Assembly: GCA_031416075.1 (NCBI GenBank)
Contig: JANOSY010000059.1
Span: forward strand, 1 to 22,271
DNA: 22,271 nt
Origin: Candidatus Tenderia sp.
GTDB taxonomy: Bacteria > Pseudomonadota > Gammaproteobacteria > Tenderiales > Tenderiaceae
Reading direction: 5' to 3'
In this document: piece after piece, positions 3,869-19,088 of the stretch
Layout: the number at the start of each line of letters is the position of its first letter
Position numbering within the stretch: position 1 is the stretch's first letter
Notes under the pieces: generated by a model
What the model was told of the DNA's origin: nothing
Databases searched by the model: none
What the model saw: only the letters and a program-made list of their open reading frames with translations
Program-made: the position numbers and the translations under genes

Positions 3869-4654
3869 ATGACAACCACAACCAGAATGCCAGCCCTCTT
3901 TATCGGCCACGGCAACCCCATGTACGCTATCGAACCAAACCACTACACCCATGGCTGGTGCCAGCTGGCACAGACACTACCGCGCCCCAAGGCAATCCTT
4001 GCCATCTCCGCCCACTGGTACATCAACCACACCGCCGTCACCGCCATGACTCAGCCACGCACGATTCATGATTTCGGCGGCTTTCCGCAAGCGTTGTTTG
4101 ATGTGCAATACCCCGCCCCCGGTGCCCCCGCACTGGCGCAACGCATCCAGCAATTGCTGGCACCCGTGGCAGTAAAACTCGACCACGAATGGGGACTCGA
4201 CCACGGCAGCTGGTCGGTACTGATACACACCCACCCAGAGGCCAATATCCCCGTCGTCCAGCTCAGCATCGACGCCACGCAATCCCCCGCCTGGCACTAC
4301 GCATTGGCCAAACAACTCAGACCGCTGCGTGACGAAGGAGTGCTTATCCTTGGCAGCGGCAACATCGTGCACAACCTCGGCCGACTCAACTGGAGCGCCA
4401 ATGCCCCGGCTTACGAATGGGCCGAACGGTTCTCCCACTGGATACAGACAGAGCTACGCAACAACAACCCCAGCGCACTTATCCACTACCTCAGCCAAGA
4501 AGATGCCCCGCTCAGCGTACCCACACCCGAGCACTACCTGCCGCTGCTGTATGTGATTGCACAGCAACAGCCAGGAGAGAAATTTGGGCTGCCGATGGGC
4601 GGGATTGATATGGGGGCGATTGACATGCAGATGGTGACGGTGGGGATGGGGTGA
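3869..4654 (+). CDS. ygiD: 4,5-DOPA extradiol dioxygenase (LigB/YgiD family)
   Basis: MPALFIGHGNPM, ISAHW, TIHDFGGFP, WGLDHGSW, GSGNIVHNL, PTPEHYLPLLY; AGGAG RBS. Confidence 0.92.
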   Translation: MTTTTRMPALFIGHGNPMYAIEPNHYTHGWCQLAQTLPRPKAILAISAHWYINHTAVTAMTQPRTIHDFGGFPQALFDVQYPAPGAPALAQRIQQLLAPVAVKLDHEWGLDHGSWSVLIHTHPEANIPVVQLSIDATQSPAWHYALAKQLRPLRDEGVLILGSGNIVHNLGRLNWSANAPAYEWAERFSHWIQTELRNNNPSALIHYLSQEDAPLSVPTPEHYLPLLYVIAQQQPGEKFGLPMGGIDMGAIDMQMVTVGMG

Positions 4655-4834: not shown

Positions 4835-4996
4835 TTAGTCAGGCCATACACGCCGCGAAGGGATGATCGGCAACGGCGCATCCTCTCGTTTGGTTGCCGG
4901 TTTGACCGGAGCTACCGGTTCGGTTGTGGTTTTGTCTGCCTGCTGCGCCTTAGCCTGACGTACACTGCCGGCCAGTTTTGATCCTATTTGACTCAT
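4835..4996 (-). CDS. 53-aa McdB-like ParA partner protein (not in ORF track)
   Basis: Manual translation MSQIGSKLAGSVRQAKAQQADKTTTEPVAPVKPATKREDAPLPIIPSRRVWPD*. Starts 2 nt after the parA stop, with a GAGGAGG RBS in the parA 3' end. Basic N-terminus, P/T/A-rich middle and C-terminal VWPD, as in alpha-carboxysome McdB. Confidence 0.85.
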   Translation of the reverse strand: MSQIGSKLAGSVRQAKAQQADKTTTEPVAPVKPATKREDAPLPIIPSRRVWPD

Positions 4997-4998
4997 GG

Positions 4999-5631
4999 TT
5001 ATATAACCTCCTCGATGATGGACTCAATCTCCTGGGCAGCCGCTTCGCCGCGTTTGCCCAGACAAAAAACACTGGCACCTTCAATGGCTGATGTTCGATA
5101 CACCGCCCGGCGACGCAAACCGCCTTTGAGCGATGGAATGTCAAACTCAGCCAGTGCCTGCTGCATGCCGCGTGATAACGCATTACGCGGTTCGAGCTGG
5201 TTGATGACTAAATAGGCCCCCAGCTTAGGGTTGCCCAGTTTGGCCTGCTCAATGGTCTGAGCCAACCGCACACTGGCCCACAGGTCAATCGGCGAGGGCA
5301 ATACCGGTATCAGTATAGTATCTGACGCTGACATGGCCAACCGCGTGGTCTCAGTCTCCAGCGTGGGTGGGCAGTCGATCACTACGTACTGGTAGTCCTG
5401 GCGAAAACGGTTGACCTCACGCGCCAGATTACCCGCCACGGCAATCACCGAGACTGGAAACGGGCGGTTATCGGGGGCTAGCCCGGTCCACTGCCCTGCC
5501 GACCCTTGTGGGTCTGCGTCGATCACCAGTGTGCGTCCACGCCGCGCCAATCCGGCGGCAAAGTTCATGCTCAGGGTTGTTTTGCCTGTGCCGCCTTTCT
5601 GATTTGAAACTGCAAAAACCTTTGCTAACAT
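4999..5631 (-). CDS. ParA/MinD-family ATPase (McdA-like), 210 aa
   Basis: Deviant Walker A KGGTGKTT, IDADPQGS, Walker B VVIDCPP, basic C-terminal patch RRRAVYR. Start placed at ATG 5631 (MLAKVFAV) instead of the ORF-track GTG 5724. Confidence 0.92.
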   Translation of the reverse strand: MLAKVFAVSNQKGGTGKTTLSMNFAAGLARRGRTLVIDADPQGSAGQWTGLAPDNRPFPVSVIAVAGNLAREVNRFRQDYQYVVIDCPPTLETETTRLAMSASDTILIPVLPSPIDLWASVRLAQTIEQAKLGNPKLGAYLVINQLEPRNALSRGMQQALAEFDIPSLKGGLRRRAVYRTSAIEGASVFCLGKRGEAAAQEIESIIEEVI

Positions 5632-5662
5632 ACAATGTTTCCAGTTTGGCCGGTGAGACAGG

Positions 5663-5671
5663 ATTCTAGCA
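5663..5671 (-). promoter_or_regulatory. Candidate extended -10 promoter for the parA operon
   Basis: Minus strand TGCTAGAAT (TGn + TAGAAT) about 30 nt upstream of the parA ATG. Confidence 0.45.
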
Positions 5672-5749
5672 TGGGCTTGCCGTCCGGCAGTGTAATTATG
5701 GTGCGATGGTGGCCCACCGGGCACACAGCCCGATCCTGGGATCTGCCAA

Positions 5750-6988
5750 CTAAATCACGCCGGGAATAAAACGGTATTTCACCCGCTTCATGTACTCACG
5801 ATACTCCGCATGTTTACGTAGGTGGCGCTCCTCTGTGTAGGCACGCAATATATAGAGTACATTCCACGCCAGATGACCAATAATCAGCTGTGGCGATGCC
5901 CAGAACTGAGCGTAAAAGGCGGTCTGCAGCCACCAGAGCGAGAGCTTGCAGACAGTGCCAGGATGACGAATGATGCCATAAGGCCCCCGCGTCTGTAGCC
6001 GTTTTAGTGTGATGTTGACCCCTGACGGCCCAAGGGAGACGTCTGAATAGATCAGCGCCAACAGCAACACAATCTCAACCATCTTGAAGATGTAGAGACC
6101 GGTCTGCTCGGCAAACACAAAACTTTCCGGCGCAACATTGGCAATAAACGGCCCAAAGGGGAAGAGTGTGCCGGTCACCTGATTCAGGGGCTCATAACAG
6201 GCCATGCAGACCAGCCAGCCACCCACGGTCATATCAATGGAACGGGTACGGTTTTCCGCCCAGCGCGACTCGATACTGTAACCGGCACTGGCAACCAGCG
6301 CATCCATAAACCAGAGTATGGACGATAGCCAGACCAGAACCGTCATCAGGTTGTAATTATTAAAGTTATCCGCTGAAAAGCGAATGGCACTGTCCATGGT
6401 GATGTAGATCTGCACCACCATAAAGGGGATGAAGTAGGCGCGCATCACCAGATTTAATAATACCTTGCGGTTATAGGCTTTATCCAACACCGCAAACCGC
6501 CGGTTCCCCCGCACCATAAAACCGAGACTGATCTGCTTCAGGATATGCAGCAGCCTTACCGCCGGGTCGTAAAAATCCTCAACCCGTGACGCCTTAAATA
6601 TCAGGGTCAACAAAAAATAGGGGATGCCGGCAACCAAATAGATATTCAGCAACGCGTCCAGAAACTCCATGCTTTTGTCATAGCGCTGATAGTAGGGATG
6701 GCTGCCAAGAAACTTAATGCCTATAAAAAGCACCACCATCCAGACCACATACCGCGCCACCGCCCGCCGCAGCAGCGGCACCACACGGATATTCTTATCT
6801 ACATAGAAGTGGCTTAAGCCGCGCCACTGGCGGATAAAATTAGCAGCTCCCCAAAAAAGCACCATTGCAAAAATGGGCAAAAAGAACCACTCATCCAGAC
6901 CGCCAAACGTCTTAAAACCGAAATAGGAGAGTGCCGTGGCCATTACCGCCATCAGTACATAGGCGTGGGGGGAGATATTGCTATTCAT
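5750..6988 (-). CDS. Polytopic membrane protein with C-terminal isoprenylcysteine carboxyl methyltransferase (ICMT/PEMT)-like domain
   Basis: Many hydrophobic segments; C-terminal LQTRGPYGIIRHP, RAYTEERHL and YREYMKRVKYRFIP motifs typical of the ICMT/PEMT family. ATG 6988 is preceded by AGGT at 6 nt; alternative TTG start at 6994. Confidence 0.8.
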   Translation of the reverse strand: MNSNISPHAYVLMAVMATALSYFGFKTFGGLDEWFFLPIFAMVLFWGAANFIRQWRGLSHFYVDKNIRVVPLLRRAVARYVVWMVVLFIGIKFLGSHPYYQRYDKSMEFLDALLNIYLVAGIPYFLLTLIFKASRVEDFYDPAVRLLHILKQISLGFMVRGNRRFAVLDKAYNRKVLLNLVMRAYFIPFMVVQIYITMDSAIRFSADNFNNYNLMTVLVWLSSILWFMDALVASAGYSIESRWAENRTRSIDMTVGGWLVCMACYEPLNQVTGTLFPFGPFIANVAPESFVFAEQTGLYIFKMVEIVLLLALIYSDVSLGPSGVNITLKRLQTRGPYGIIRHPGTVCKLSLWWLQTAFYAQFWASPQLIIGHLAWNVLYILRAYTEERHLRKHAEYREYMKRVKYRFIPGVI

Positions 6989-7230
6989 TTTCAAACCTGT
7001 CGATCAACAAAACACCCCTCAGGGACCCGTTGCGAGCGTTGGCGCATTAATATCCTCTGCATACTATCAGCTACCGAGGGCAGCGCCCCATCCTTCAAAC
7101 ATTTATATCAACGCCAGTGCCAGGCAGCGGTCTACCCAGCCGTCCGTAGATAACCGGGGGCAATCCCGTGACAAATACCGTAAAATAAACCCTCTCTATC
7201 GCGATGCAGACCACCACACCGGAGCCACCG

Positions 7231-10261: not shown

Positions 10262-10945
10262 ATGATCAAACAAGCCATGGTTGGATTTGCCCTACTCACC
10301 AGCTGCACAATAGCGCAGGCTCTTCCGGTAGTGCAGTTCTCTGACTTTATCAATGACGGCACACGTAGCAACTTCAACGGCTTTGAGAGCATTCCTAACG
10401 ATGGCACAATGTATACCAATGGTAGCGCCTATATCGAAGATGGAGTTATGGTGCAGCAGATTAACGGTGATTCCGGAAACGACATCTGGGTTACCTACAC
10501 CGGCTCACATCATCAAGGCGGTTACAGCTGGTATCCAAACGGCGGTGACAATGGTTACACCCAGATATCCCGTAGCGGTGGATTAAACTTCGAAGATGTA
10601 GGAATGATCATCGGTAGCGGTTTTGGCCTGGCCAGCAACGTTTTTTATGAGCTACTCAGCAATGGTGTCTCTGTGCTTTCCGGCTCCTTTACCCCCACAT
10701 CTAACCAGTACCTGGGTTTTTCCGGTGGTGGTTTTGACAAAATCCTTCTTGCTGACTGCTCACAGTGTGACTCATTCACCACCTCCGTCACCGATGGCCA
10801 TTTCCAGGCACTGGCCCTGGACAGCATCGAACTCTCCGGTACGGTTCCAGAGCCAACTTCATTAGCACTGTTGGCGGCAGGATTGATGGGGCTGGGCTGG
10901 CGCAATCGTAAGACATCACTGAACAGCACAACCATTACTGCGTAA
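10262..10945 (+). CDS. PEP-CTERM sorting-domain exported protein
   Basis: N-terminal signal peptide (MIKQAMVGFALLTSCTIAQA), G/S/N/D-rich body, C-terminal VPEPTSLALLAAGLMGLGW-RNRK (PEP motif, TM helix, basic tail). Confidence 0.93.
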   Translation: MIKQAMVGFALLTSCTIAQALPVVQFSDFINDGTRSNFNGFESIPNDGTMYTNGSAYIEDGVMVQQINGDSGNDIWVTYTGSHHQGGYSWYPNGGDNGYTQISRSGGLNFEDVGMIIGSGFGLASNVFYELLSNGVSVLSGSFTPTSNQYLGFSGGGFDKILLADCSQCDSFTTSVTDGHFQALALDSIELSGTVPEPTSLALLAAGLMGLGWRNRKTSLNSTTITA

Positions 10946-17441: not shown

Positions 17442-19088
17442 CTACAAATCCTGCAACTGCTCGATAAGCGGTCCAATATGCCGCTCATAATGACGCCAAC
17501 GCTGAACCGACCGTTTGTAGATTGGCTGACGTACCTGGTCATAACTGCTGGTGACAGTCAGGCGGGGGTTTTCATAGTGCCTCATACACTCGTCTTCCCA
17601 TGGCAGATCAAGAAAGGTTAACAGCGCTGCGGTTGTCTGTTCTTGTTGCTCAATAAAGTCTTCATACTGCAACGTAAAAAATGACAGCTTAAGACTCTCC
17701 TTCCAATGCTGCATCAGGTCATGATAACTGCGGTAATAGCTGGCAACCGCATCAAGATCATAGGAGTAGTCATGCCCTTGGTTAAAGGATTGAAAATAAC
17801 AGGAGAGACAAACATCAACCGGGTCACGTACACAGTGAATAATACGGGCTTCGGGAAACAGCCGGGCAATTAACCCCAGATGCAAAAAGTTTTGTGGCAT
17901 CTTGTCAGTCACATATCTTGCCGTGCTATTAAGCCCATTGATATTTTCCAGGTACTGGCCCGCATAAAGGTCAATCTCATCGGCATCCAGGCCCGCCACC
18001 TTCACCCCATAAATACCATCCGGCCCTGCGGCCTGCTGGGCAATCTGGTTAATATAATAGAGTTCTCCTGCAGCAAACACCTGTGAATGACAATCCAGGA
18101 TCTGCTCCACCAGACTAGTGCCTGAGCGTGGCATACCCAAAATAAAAATAGGACGTGCAGCGACACCAGAAGGTTTGGCTGTTCTCTCAAAAAAATCTCT
18201 TGTCAAAATATCTGTGGTGTGGCTGATAAACTGTTGCAGCTCTCCGGCATCAAATCCTTGAAACTTATAACGGTTGGCCTTCTGAAAATGGGCAAACGCA
18301 TTGTCAAAATCAGACTCATGATCATATAAACGGCCAAGATTAAAATGGAGTTCGGCCAACTCATCCGCCGTGAGCAGTTTCGCCTGTGTCTGCAATAATT
18401 TTCGGGTTAACTTAATCACCTTGTTATTAGCACCGGCAGGGCGGGCAATCAACGCATATGCCGTCACCATGTGGTAAGTAGGGGCATGTTTCGCCAGAAG
18501 CACATCCAGTATCTTCTGAGCAGTCTGCCACTCCCCCATACGGGCGTATGCCATTGCTTCAGTAGCATACGGCTTGGGATTGTTTGGGAAGTATTGTTTA
18601 ACATGGGCGCAATGGCCCAACAGCTCTTGATATCGATGGGCGCTGTATAACAGCTTACCTAATAGCTCCAATAGCTGCACATCCGCAGGCGAGCGCTGCA
18701 ACATCAACTGATACAGGGCTATCGCCTCATCAAAACGTTCAGCCGCTGCATAAGCAGCCGCCAGTTTAAATTTGCTCTCCGGAACGTCGGGGTGAAGCTC
18801 GACCATCCTCTGGTAATAGAGCACTGCCTCGTCGTTATACCCCGCATATAGCAGAGTCCCCGCCAGATTGTTAAGCGCCTGTTCCCAATCGGGCTTGAGT
18901 TCAACCGCTTTTTTAAGATTATTAATCGCCTCATCAATTTGGCCGGTTTTTTTCTGAATATTGGCCAGATTGTAATAGCCGAGTGGGAAAGAGGCATCGA
19001 TGGCAATCGCCTCTCGATAAAGGACGATGGCCCGACCAAAGTCGCCTTTCATGGCAAACTCCGTTCCCTCGCGCAACCTACGCATCAT
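17442..19088 (-). CDS. TPR-repeat sulfotransferase family protein
   Basis: N-terminal TPRs (YYNLANI, ALNNLAG, LHFNLGRL) and a sulfotransferase domain (PIFILGMPRSGTSLVEQIL, DKMPQNF, RDPVDVCLSCY, YEDF, SSYDQVRQPIY). Confidence 0.92.
   Translation of the reverse strand: MMRRLREGTEFAMKGDFGRAIVLYREAIAIDASFPLGYYNLANIQKKTGQIDEAINNLKKAVELKPDWEQALNNLAGTLLYAGYNDEAVLYYQRMVELHPDVPESKFKLAAAYAAAERFDEAIALYQLMLQRSPADVQLLELLGKLLYSAHRYQELLGHCAHVKQYFPNNPKPYATEAMAYARMGEWQTAQKILDVLLAKHAPTYHMVTAYALIARPAGANNKVIKLTRKLLQTQAKLLTADELAELHFNLGRLYDHESDFDNAFAHFQKANRYKFQGFDAGELQQFISHTTDILTRDFFERTAKPSGVAARPIFILGMPRSGTSLVEQILDCHSQVFAAGELYYINQIAQQAAGPDGIYGVKVAGLDADEIDLYAGQYLENINGLNSTARYVTDKMPQNFLHLGLIARLFPEARIIHCVRDPVDVCLSCYFQSFNQGHDYSYDLDAVASYYRSYHDLMQHWKESLKLSFFTLQYEDFIEQQEQTTAALLTFLDLPWEDECMRHYENPRLTVTSSYDQVRQPIYKRSVQRWRHYERHIGPLIEQLQDL

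Follow-up and report, generated by a model that had tools for sequence, protein, structure and literature searches.

A probable alpha-McdAB gene pair encoded apart from the carboxysome operon in a Candidatus Tenderia genome

Introduction

What does a ParA-type ATPase do when no parB lies beside it and its only companion is a reading frame of 53 codons? The question is raised by contig JANOSY010000059.1 (C59) of the Candidatus Tenderia sp. assembly GCA_031416075.1 (G000 in our survey; 3.49 Mb in 95 contigs, 99.98% complete), whose 22,271 nt we refer to as the window. An initial annotation, made from the letters of the DNA alone, had read the two genes as an orphan McdAB-like system for positioning an organelle, whose target would be either a distant carboxysome operon, served in trans, or a novel cargo. 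By searching the rest of the genome and a sample of its relatives, we found a carboxysome (cso) locus on another contig, C66, and a second mcdB-like gene within it. We conclude that the pair is very probably an alpha-McdAB system that serves the C66-encoded carboxysomes in trans, through the published mechanism of Brownian-ratchet type.

The alpha-McdB proteins described by MacCready et al. (2021, PMC8359340) all end in V(I)WPD and are hydrophilic, disordered, rich in A, P, K, S and T, and 51-169 aa long. Those encoded next to mcdA (Type 1) have a charged N-terminus, while Type 2 proteins are orphaned in the cso operon and share the V(I)WPD end without the charged N-terminus. Of the three arrangements set out there, arrangement (iii) combines an orphan mcdB in the cso operon with an mcdA-adjacent mcdB at a distant locus. 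The same study gives as marks of alpha-McdA the signature lysine, the Walker A' and B boxes, three specific regions and a central Trp in 'region 1', and puts the prevalence of McdA at ~91%. The C-terminal consensus of McdB is given as R(V/I)WPD, with an invariant Trp, by Basalla et al. (2024, PMC11321042), and Byrne et al. (PMC12139897) describe the N-terminal 20 residues of Halothiobacillus neapolitanus McdB as binding McdA, with lysines at 7, 13 and 17 of which K7 is critical.

Results

The gene pair and the 53-aa protein

The features of the pair, collected in Table 1, agree with the initial annotation. The 210-aa ATPase carries the deviant Walker A motif KGGTGKTT, with the signature lysine K12 and K17, and its stop codon lies 2 nt from the ATG of the 53-aa open reading frame (ORF), which follows a GAGGAGG site and ends in RRVWPD. 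The basic N-terminus that had been claimed for the small protein is likewise present, with the motif K7-L8 ... R13 ... K16 and with three basic and no acidic residues among the first 20. Over its whole length the protein is rich in A, P, K, S and T (27/53), has a grand average of hydropathy (GRAVY) of -0.67 and contains one aromatic residue. Pfam and NCBIfam profile searches gave no match for it, including none to ribbon-helix-helix (RHH) or ParG models.

We compared it with the equivalent proteins of related pairs, whose sampling is described below. Only L8, R49, W51, P52 and D53 are invariant in all 45 aligned Type 1 partners; K7 is kept in 37 of the 45, and the motif K-L-x2-S-V-R occurs in 42 of them, as against none of seven ORFs ending in WPD (WPD ORFs) that stand as orphans in cso loci. 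Between the two ends, the middle of the protein varies freely in length and sequence and is too indel-rich to align, a pattern consistent with a disordered linker between two short linear motifs. The small protein was modelled with a predicted local distance difference test (pLDDT) score of 49-50 in the complex runs reported below, which is likewise consistent with disorder. Absent from the alignments are L026 and L033, where the start of mcdB is uncertain, L050 and L053, which have a non-ATG start, and L020, L022 and L055, in which the ParA is truncated or downstream sequence is missing.

The cso locus and a second mcdB-like gene

All three bacterial microcompartment (BMC) domain matches of the genome lie on C66. 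The cso locus there runs along one strand and encodes the large and small subunits of RuBisCO, CsoS2, CsoSCA and two CsoS1-type proteins; on the same strand it also holds an EutN/CcmL (CsoS4-type) vertex gene with an abutting second ORF of 83 aa, ferritin-like and CsoS1D-like genes, an SbtA-like/P-II pair and a LysR regulator. A search of the genome for ParA homologues found none on C66, and located ParA/MinD paralogs on C89, C90, C73 and C44, the last a 104-aa fragment. A full cso locus with no ParA of its own supports the suggestion that the window pair acts in trans on a distant carboxysome operon. The labels 'orphan' and novel cargo both fall, since the operon has been found elsewhere in the genome.

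A six-frame scan of the genome for frames ending in [VIL]WPD returned three: the window ORF, a junk frame of 14 residues and the 51-aa ORF on C66 listed in Table 1. Two frames, the window ORF and the C66 ORF, end in RR[VI]WPD, against 0.013 expected from six-frame composition, and the window ORF is therefore above chance. The last eight residues of the two proteins, PSRRVWPD, are identical. Among its first 20 residues the C66 protein has two basic and two acidic ones, and the KLxxSVR motif is absent. As an orphan of the cso operon that ends in VWPD and has no charged N-terminus, this ORF has each of the features by which Type 2 alpha-McdBs are described, and we treat it as a putative Type 2 mcdB. 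Because the window protein has the hallmarks of Type 1 and its C66 paralog is missing the basic N-terminus, the layout of these two candidate genes reproduces arrangement (iii) of PMC8359340 feature by feature.

The SbtA-like gene of this locus deserves a separate remark. It encodes an SbtA-like Na+/bicarbonate transporter (Sbt_1, E 6e-113) and, with its P-II-like neighbour, occupies C66:7351-8752 (L078:3351-4752) on the minus strand, flanked by the putative Type 2 mcdB and the LysR regulator; the carboxysome operon thus has a module for inorganic-carbon uptake embedded in it.

Distribution of the pair among related genomes

We examined a sample of 301 genomes of the class, including that of the window, counting matches to the window ParA at E<=1e-30. 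Such matches were found in 58 genomes, at 61 places, and a match to CsoS2_M was found in 54 of the 301. At 51 of the 61 places a small ORF on the same strand, ending in WPD, directly follows the ParA (49 were found by script, and two with non-ATG starts by eye); one further place is cut by a contig end, and nine have no WPD ORF. In 32 of the 51 WPD ORFs a V precedes the Trp; the others have I (15), T (two), C (one) or R (one) there.

For 33 of the 51 pairs the best CsoS2 match sits on the same contig, 4.5-6.3 kb away; among these are the relatives L015, L018, L021 and L022 at 61-71% identity. The remaining pairs are on another contig than CsoS2 (14), at 1.8 Mb on the same contig (one) or in genomes with no CsoS2_M match (three). 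Counted by genome, CsoS2_M is present in 47 of the 50 that have a pair, and the other three carry BMC-domain genes at a distance of 1-6 kb from the ParA, on short contigs where the cso loci appear to have been cut by assembly breaks; carboxysome genes thus accompany the pair in all 50 genomes. G169, a genome of the same family as that of the window and 100% complete, has no ParA match, no CsoS2 and no BMC genes alike.

Two sets of loci in the sample stood out in their own right. L032 (G165:C56) and L055 (G057:C5), from different families, are off-operon pairs with identical McdB and near-zero McdA branch lengths, and G165 holds a second pair within its operon (L043); the likeness of L032 and L055 suggests either that the two-gene module was recently transferred horizontally or that the assemblies are cross-contaminated. 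At L019 (G110:C61), more than 700 codons upstream of the aligned region lack a stop in the McdA frame (972 aa or 708 aa of open frame), which could be due to an absent upstream stop, a fusion, or a G+C-rich frame with few stops.

Phylogeny of the ATPase

The ParA tree had 63 rows, made up of 60 ParA places and three paralogs from the window genome (C89, C90 and C73) as outgroup; L022, whose ParA is truncated to 160 aa, and the C44 fragment were left out. A single clade of 51 rows takes in all the WPD-partnered ParAs and the contig-end case, with the window ParA inside it (Shimodaira-Hasegawa-like approximate likelihood ratio test, SH-aLRT, 92), and the nine ParAs lacking a WPD partner (L062-L070, from nine genomes) form its sister clade (SH-aLRT 97). 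The phylogeny that the initial annotation had named as a check thus places the window ParA among WPD-partnered proteins and apart from the sister clade, whose partners, at the places where one was found, are ParG-like. A clade that lies mostly in cso operons, together with the alpha-McdB hallmarks of the small protein, argues for an organelle-positioning pair of McdAB type, as had been proposed.

Within the WPD clade, the window ParA belongs to a group of four rows nested in a group of eight (SH-aLRT 96 each), and all eight members are encoded away from CsoS2. The nearest rows outside these eight are in-operon McdAs at 61-69% identity. Six of the seven other distant-locus genomes have, in the cso locus, an orphan WPD ORF without the N-terminal motif, and the seventh locus is cut after 7 kb; on these grounds the putative split between Type 1 and Type 2 mcdB is conserved in the distant-locus lineage. 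One cso locus, L072 (G289:C22), has a further ParA-like P-loop motif ~6.6 kb downstream of its orphan mcdB, on the same strand.

In the sister clade the partner, where one was found, is of a different kind. The ParAs of this clade are ~207-215 aa long and 34-40% identical to that of the window. A motif search found a downstream ORF of ~75-95 aa at five of the nine places; when these five were scanned, two reached the RHH_10 cut-off and three gave RHH_10, ParG, ParD or FitA-like signals only below cut-off. The clade looks like a set of classical type Ib partition modules. Two genomes, G195 and G243, have a ParA of this clade and an McdAB pair as well.

At the level of domains, the window ParA matches NCBIfam NF041546 'ParA family partition ATPase' (203 positions) over residues 6-208, with 202 bits against a cut-off of 180, and the profile search found no extra domain. 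Residues D38/D40 and D86, whose columns we take to be those of the Walker A' and B boxes, are invariant across the WPD clade and the outgroups. Eight further columns (C87, Q145, E147, S153, R174, R179, E184 and G192) are either invariant in the WPD clade or at least 90% conserved there, and are rare outside it; the window ParA has all eight residues. They are columns drawn from this sample, taken in place of the published alpha-McdA regions. The window ParA also has W48, as do all nine members of the sister clade and none of the three own-genome paralogs. Among the best 120 of 4107 homologues, which are 70-100% identical, the source names read 'ParA family partition ATPase' or 'AAA family ATPase' or something similar, and none is McdA. 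An identity as MinD or chromosomal ParA/Soj was considered and rejected: the MinD, RepA, SopA and VirC1 models score far under their cut-offs (minD, 45.7 bits against 212.9) and no parB adjoins the gene.

Predicted complex of the two proteins

We also modelled a complex of two McdA chains, two ATP and one McdB, with a 45-row alignment for each protein. The median complex score was 0.32 against 0.00 for the best control, with contact agreement of at least 47% and a partner pLDDT of at least 49, and was graded as weak support. The prediction mark used here is reached by 58 of 80 solved complexes and by 2 of 110 mismatched pairs, and scores of 0.60 or below comprise seven of the 80 solved complexes plus both of the mismatches that passed. 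A pass is more often wrong than right unless the pairing was likely beforehand, as it is here. Because the pairing was already likely and a similar AlphaFold 3 (AF3) model is in print, the prediction adds little.

The locus and its neighbours

Table 1. Coordinates of the mcdAB pair, its flanking features and the cso-locus paralog (window positions unless a contig is given)
Feature	Position	Strand	Remarks
mcdA, ParA-type ATPase, 210 aa	4999..5631	-	ATG at 5631; stop TAA 5001-4999; KGGTGKTT with Lys12
mcdB, putative Type 1, 53 aa	4835..4996	-	ATG at 4996; C-terminus RRVWPD
Shine-Dalgarno-like GAGGAGG	5013-5007	-	in the mcdA 3' end; 10 nt before the ATG of mcdB; read directly
Terminator-like hairpin and T-rich tail	4789-4750	-	arms 4789-4780 / 4769-4760
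Possible extended -10-like element TGCTAGAAT	5671-5663	-	by eye only; 31 nt upstream of the mcdA ATG; no -35 match
414-aa multi-pass membrane protein gene	5750-6994	-	directly upstream of mcdA
ygiD-type DOPA-dioxygenase gene	3869-4654	+	convergent with mcdB
mcdB, putative Type 2 paralog, 51 aa	C66:8895-9050	-	between ferritin-like and SbtA-like genes; ATG behind GAAGGA

The ParA frame can be extended upstream to a GTG at 5724, which would give 241 aa; the ATG at 5631 is the likely start, because the relatives are 206-219 aa long and align from residue 1-5. To the initial annotation the pair seemed to have its own promoter and terminator, and of these the terminator is borne out as a sequence pattern. 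A G+C-rich hairpin of 10-11 bp (4789-4760) stands 46 nt past the mcdB stop, between the convergent mcdB and ygiD-like genes, and is followed by CTCTGTTTTG; it is retained in both the minimum free energy (MFE) and the centroid structures, and a repeat search gives its 10-nt arms as 100% complementary. The promoter fared less well, since a scan for the sigma-70 consensus found no minus-strand site in the 118-nt gap (5632-5749) upstream of mcdA. For this reason mcdA may be co-transcribed with the upstream gene for the 414-aa protein.

Window gene and profile searches bear out that no parB adjoins the pair and that no cso or shell gene lies within the window. Nor does an RHH gene or iteron array adjoin it, and a repeat search of its flanks gave no iteron- or centromere-like arrays. 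The other genes of the window are of housekeeping type (an ilvD-type dehydratase, an epimerase, a PP-loop ATPase, an amino-acid kinase/GNAT protein and others). Neither of the two flanking genes, for the 414-aa membrane protein and the ygiD-like enzyme, occurs in the ~1.5-kb flanks of any of the other 60 ParA loci; with synteny not kept, the position of the locus gives no clue to function.

The 414-aa protein itself has no NCBIfam match, and its sole Pfam signal is a sub-threshold PEMT-like one at the C-terminus (E 5e-4; 20.8 bits, cut-off 25). Elsewhere in the window, a 227-aa PEP-CTERM-tagged protein (10262-10945, +) and a TPR-sulfotransferase fusion (17442-19088, -) hint at surface biology related to exopolysaccharide or exosortase, with no relation to the McdAB pair.

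Discussion

The pair can be set beside three groups of known systems. Like the alpha-McdAB of H. neapolitanus and other proteobacteria with alpha-carboxysomes, it consists of a ParA with the signature lysine followed by a small protein with a basic N-terminus and an RVWPD end, and, as in arrangement (iii), a second mcdB without the basic N-terminus stands in the cso operon of a genome with an alpha-carboxysome locus. Unlike the H. neapolitanus pair, which we take to lie inside the cso operon, the window pair is on another contig, between the genes for the 414-aa membrane protein and the ygiD-like enzyme. At 53 aa its McdB is near the lower end of the range of 51-169 aa given for alpha-McdBs in PMC8359340, and its basic residues at 7, 13 and 16 compare with the lysines at 7, 13 and 17 of the H. 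neapolitanus protein (PMC12139897). The beta-McdAB system of Synechococcus elongatus PCC 7942 (MacCready 2018, 2020) follows the same logic, a nucleoid ParA-type ATPase with an adaptor that has an invariant C-terminal Trp, and beta-mcdAB genes are described as often distant from carboxysome genes (PMC8359340), as they are here. The beta-McdBs described so far differ, however, in being 132-394 aa long, with a coiled coil, Q-rich stretches and a degenerate C-terminal motif (PMC11321042; PMC8359340). Type 1 beta-McdA also differs in having no signature lysine, and the cargo is the beta-carboxysome. The ParF/ParG systems of type Ib (TP228; 4dzz) share with the window pair a small ParA of ~206 aa without an N-terminal helix-turn-helix (HTH), and supply both the closest solved structure and, in our sample, the sister clade. 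A ParG-type partner contacts its ParF-type ATPase through an N-terminal basic tail, a point cited in PMC12139897. Unlike such a partner, the small protein of the window has no RHH domain and no centromere repeat beside it, and its cargo would be a protein organelle.

What we observe directly is the structure of the genes, their conservation, the clade to which the ATPase belongs, the presence of carboxysome genes alongside the pair and the cso-locus paralog; binding to DNA, stimulation of the ATPase, binding to the shell and the role of the paralog we infer by homology to H. neapolitanus. On that model, ATP-bound McdA dimers would coat the nucleoid, and the 53-aa McdB would attach to the carboxysome by the RRVWPD at its C-terminus. 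Its N-terminal basic helix (K7, R13 and K16) would dock at the dimer junction of McdA and so release McdA from the DNA, and the resulting gradients of McdA would keep carboxysomes spaced and partitioned at division. The Type 2 paralog, with the common shell-binding tail and without the McdA-binding N-terminus, would probably occupy the same shell sites without engaging McdA.

Several points weigh against the assignment as alpha-McdAB. The tree comes from a quick IQ-TREE run (LG+G4) with SH-aLRT as its sole support, the value of 92 for the WPD clade is under the 95 mark, and experimentally characterised McdA or McdB proteins are in neither tree nor alignments, so that it is operon context and the published motifs that decide membership. 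The co-occurrence counts describe the sample and carry no statistical test; as the genomes are kin, they overstate the case. Nor is the system universal, for seven of the 54 genomes in which CsoS2 occurs gave no ParA match at the threshold used, which agrees with the published McdA prevalence. The complex prediction lends weak support to binding between McdA and McdB. Finally, NCBIfam files the ATPase as a 'ParA family partition ATPase' (NF041546), and its closest solved structure is that of the plasmid protein ParF (4dzz, E 1.8e-20), with ParA 5u1g also among the best matches in the PDB.

Those last two assignments are what one would expect if the locus were instead a ParF-like, type Ib DNA partition module of an integrated plasmid or mobile element, with the small protein as a novel centromere-binding or adaptor partner, and the lack of conserved flanking genes at the other 60 loci points the same way. 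We nevertheless consider this very improbable. The partner gives no signal of an RHH or ParB fold, the flanks have no iteron- or centromere-like array and the neighbours are housekeeping genes, while the ParAs that are followed by ParG-like ORFs (five of nine places) stand in a separate sister clade and the WPD clade tracks carboxysome genes in every genome that has a pair. The small chance that the pair is McdAB-like but positions another cargo, such as a different microcompartment, an encapsulin or a storage granule, with the carboxysome served in some other way, seems to us no greater. The distance from the cso locus and the terminator of the pair's own would suit it, and MacCready et al. 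(PMC8359340) do describe McdAB-like genes near other BMC types. The non-carboxysome McdB-like proteins described in that study, however, end in Tyr rather than R(V/I)WPD. The BMC-domain matches of this genome are confined to the C66 locus, the eight-residue tail is identical to that of the cso-encoded paralog, and G169, which lacks carboxysome genes, lacks the ParA too.

Least probable of all, to the point that we give it almost no weight, is that the 53-aa ORF is a chance frame and that the ParA acts by itself or has an unlinked partner. The ORF is indeed shorter than gene callers usually accept and matches no Pfam or NCBIfam family, but a WPD ORF follows 51 of the 52 ParAs of the clade (the 52nd being cut by the contig end), the N-terminal motif and the invariant R-x-WPD end are kept despite the variable middle, and the Shine-Dalgarno site is strong and the coupling as tight as 2 nt. 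Thus, we hold to the view that the pair is most likely an alpha-McdAB system serving the carboxysomes of C66 in trans.

If that is so, the separation of the two mcdB genes invites a further thought. Type 1 mcdB would be transcribed with mcdA, from a locus with a terminator and possibly a promoter of its own, and Type 2 with the shell genes, although the two proteins end in an identical octapeptide, and separate transcription might uncouple control of their ratio from carboxysome synthesis. We regard this as a speculation that is rather unlikely to hold; were it true, the ratio of Type 1 to Type 2 on each carboxysome would tune its coupling to the nucleoid, for instance with CO2 supply. The idea of a Type 1:Type 2 ratio has already been raised in PMC8359340, and the sole new element here would be regulatory uncoupling by genomic separation, conserved in the eight-row distant-locus subclade.

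The system and its genomic arrangement are already in print, and the locus raises no question beyond the McdAB literature; its value is mainly one of annotation. The genes for the 53-aa and 51-aa proteins are under the size usually admitted in gene calling and have no Pfam or NCBIfam model. Recognition of the pair would give a function to three genes, and would describe carboxysome positioning in this lineage as a split Type 1 / Type 2 layout. With a McdA-binding end of ~17 residues and a shell-binding end of ~10, the 53-aa McdB would come close to a minimal natural adaptor, and may serve in the engineering of organelle positioning.

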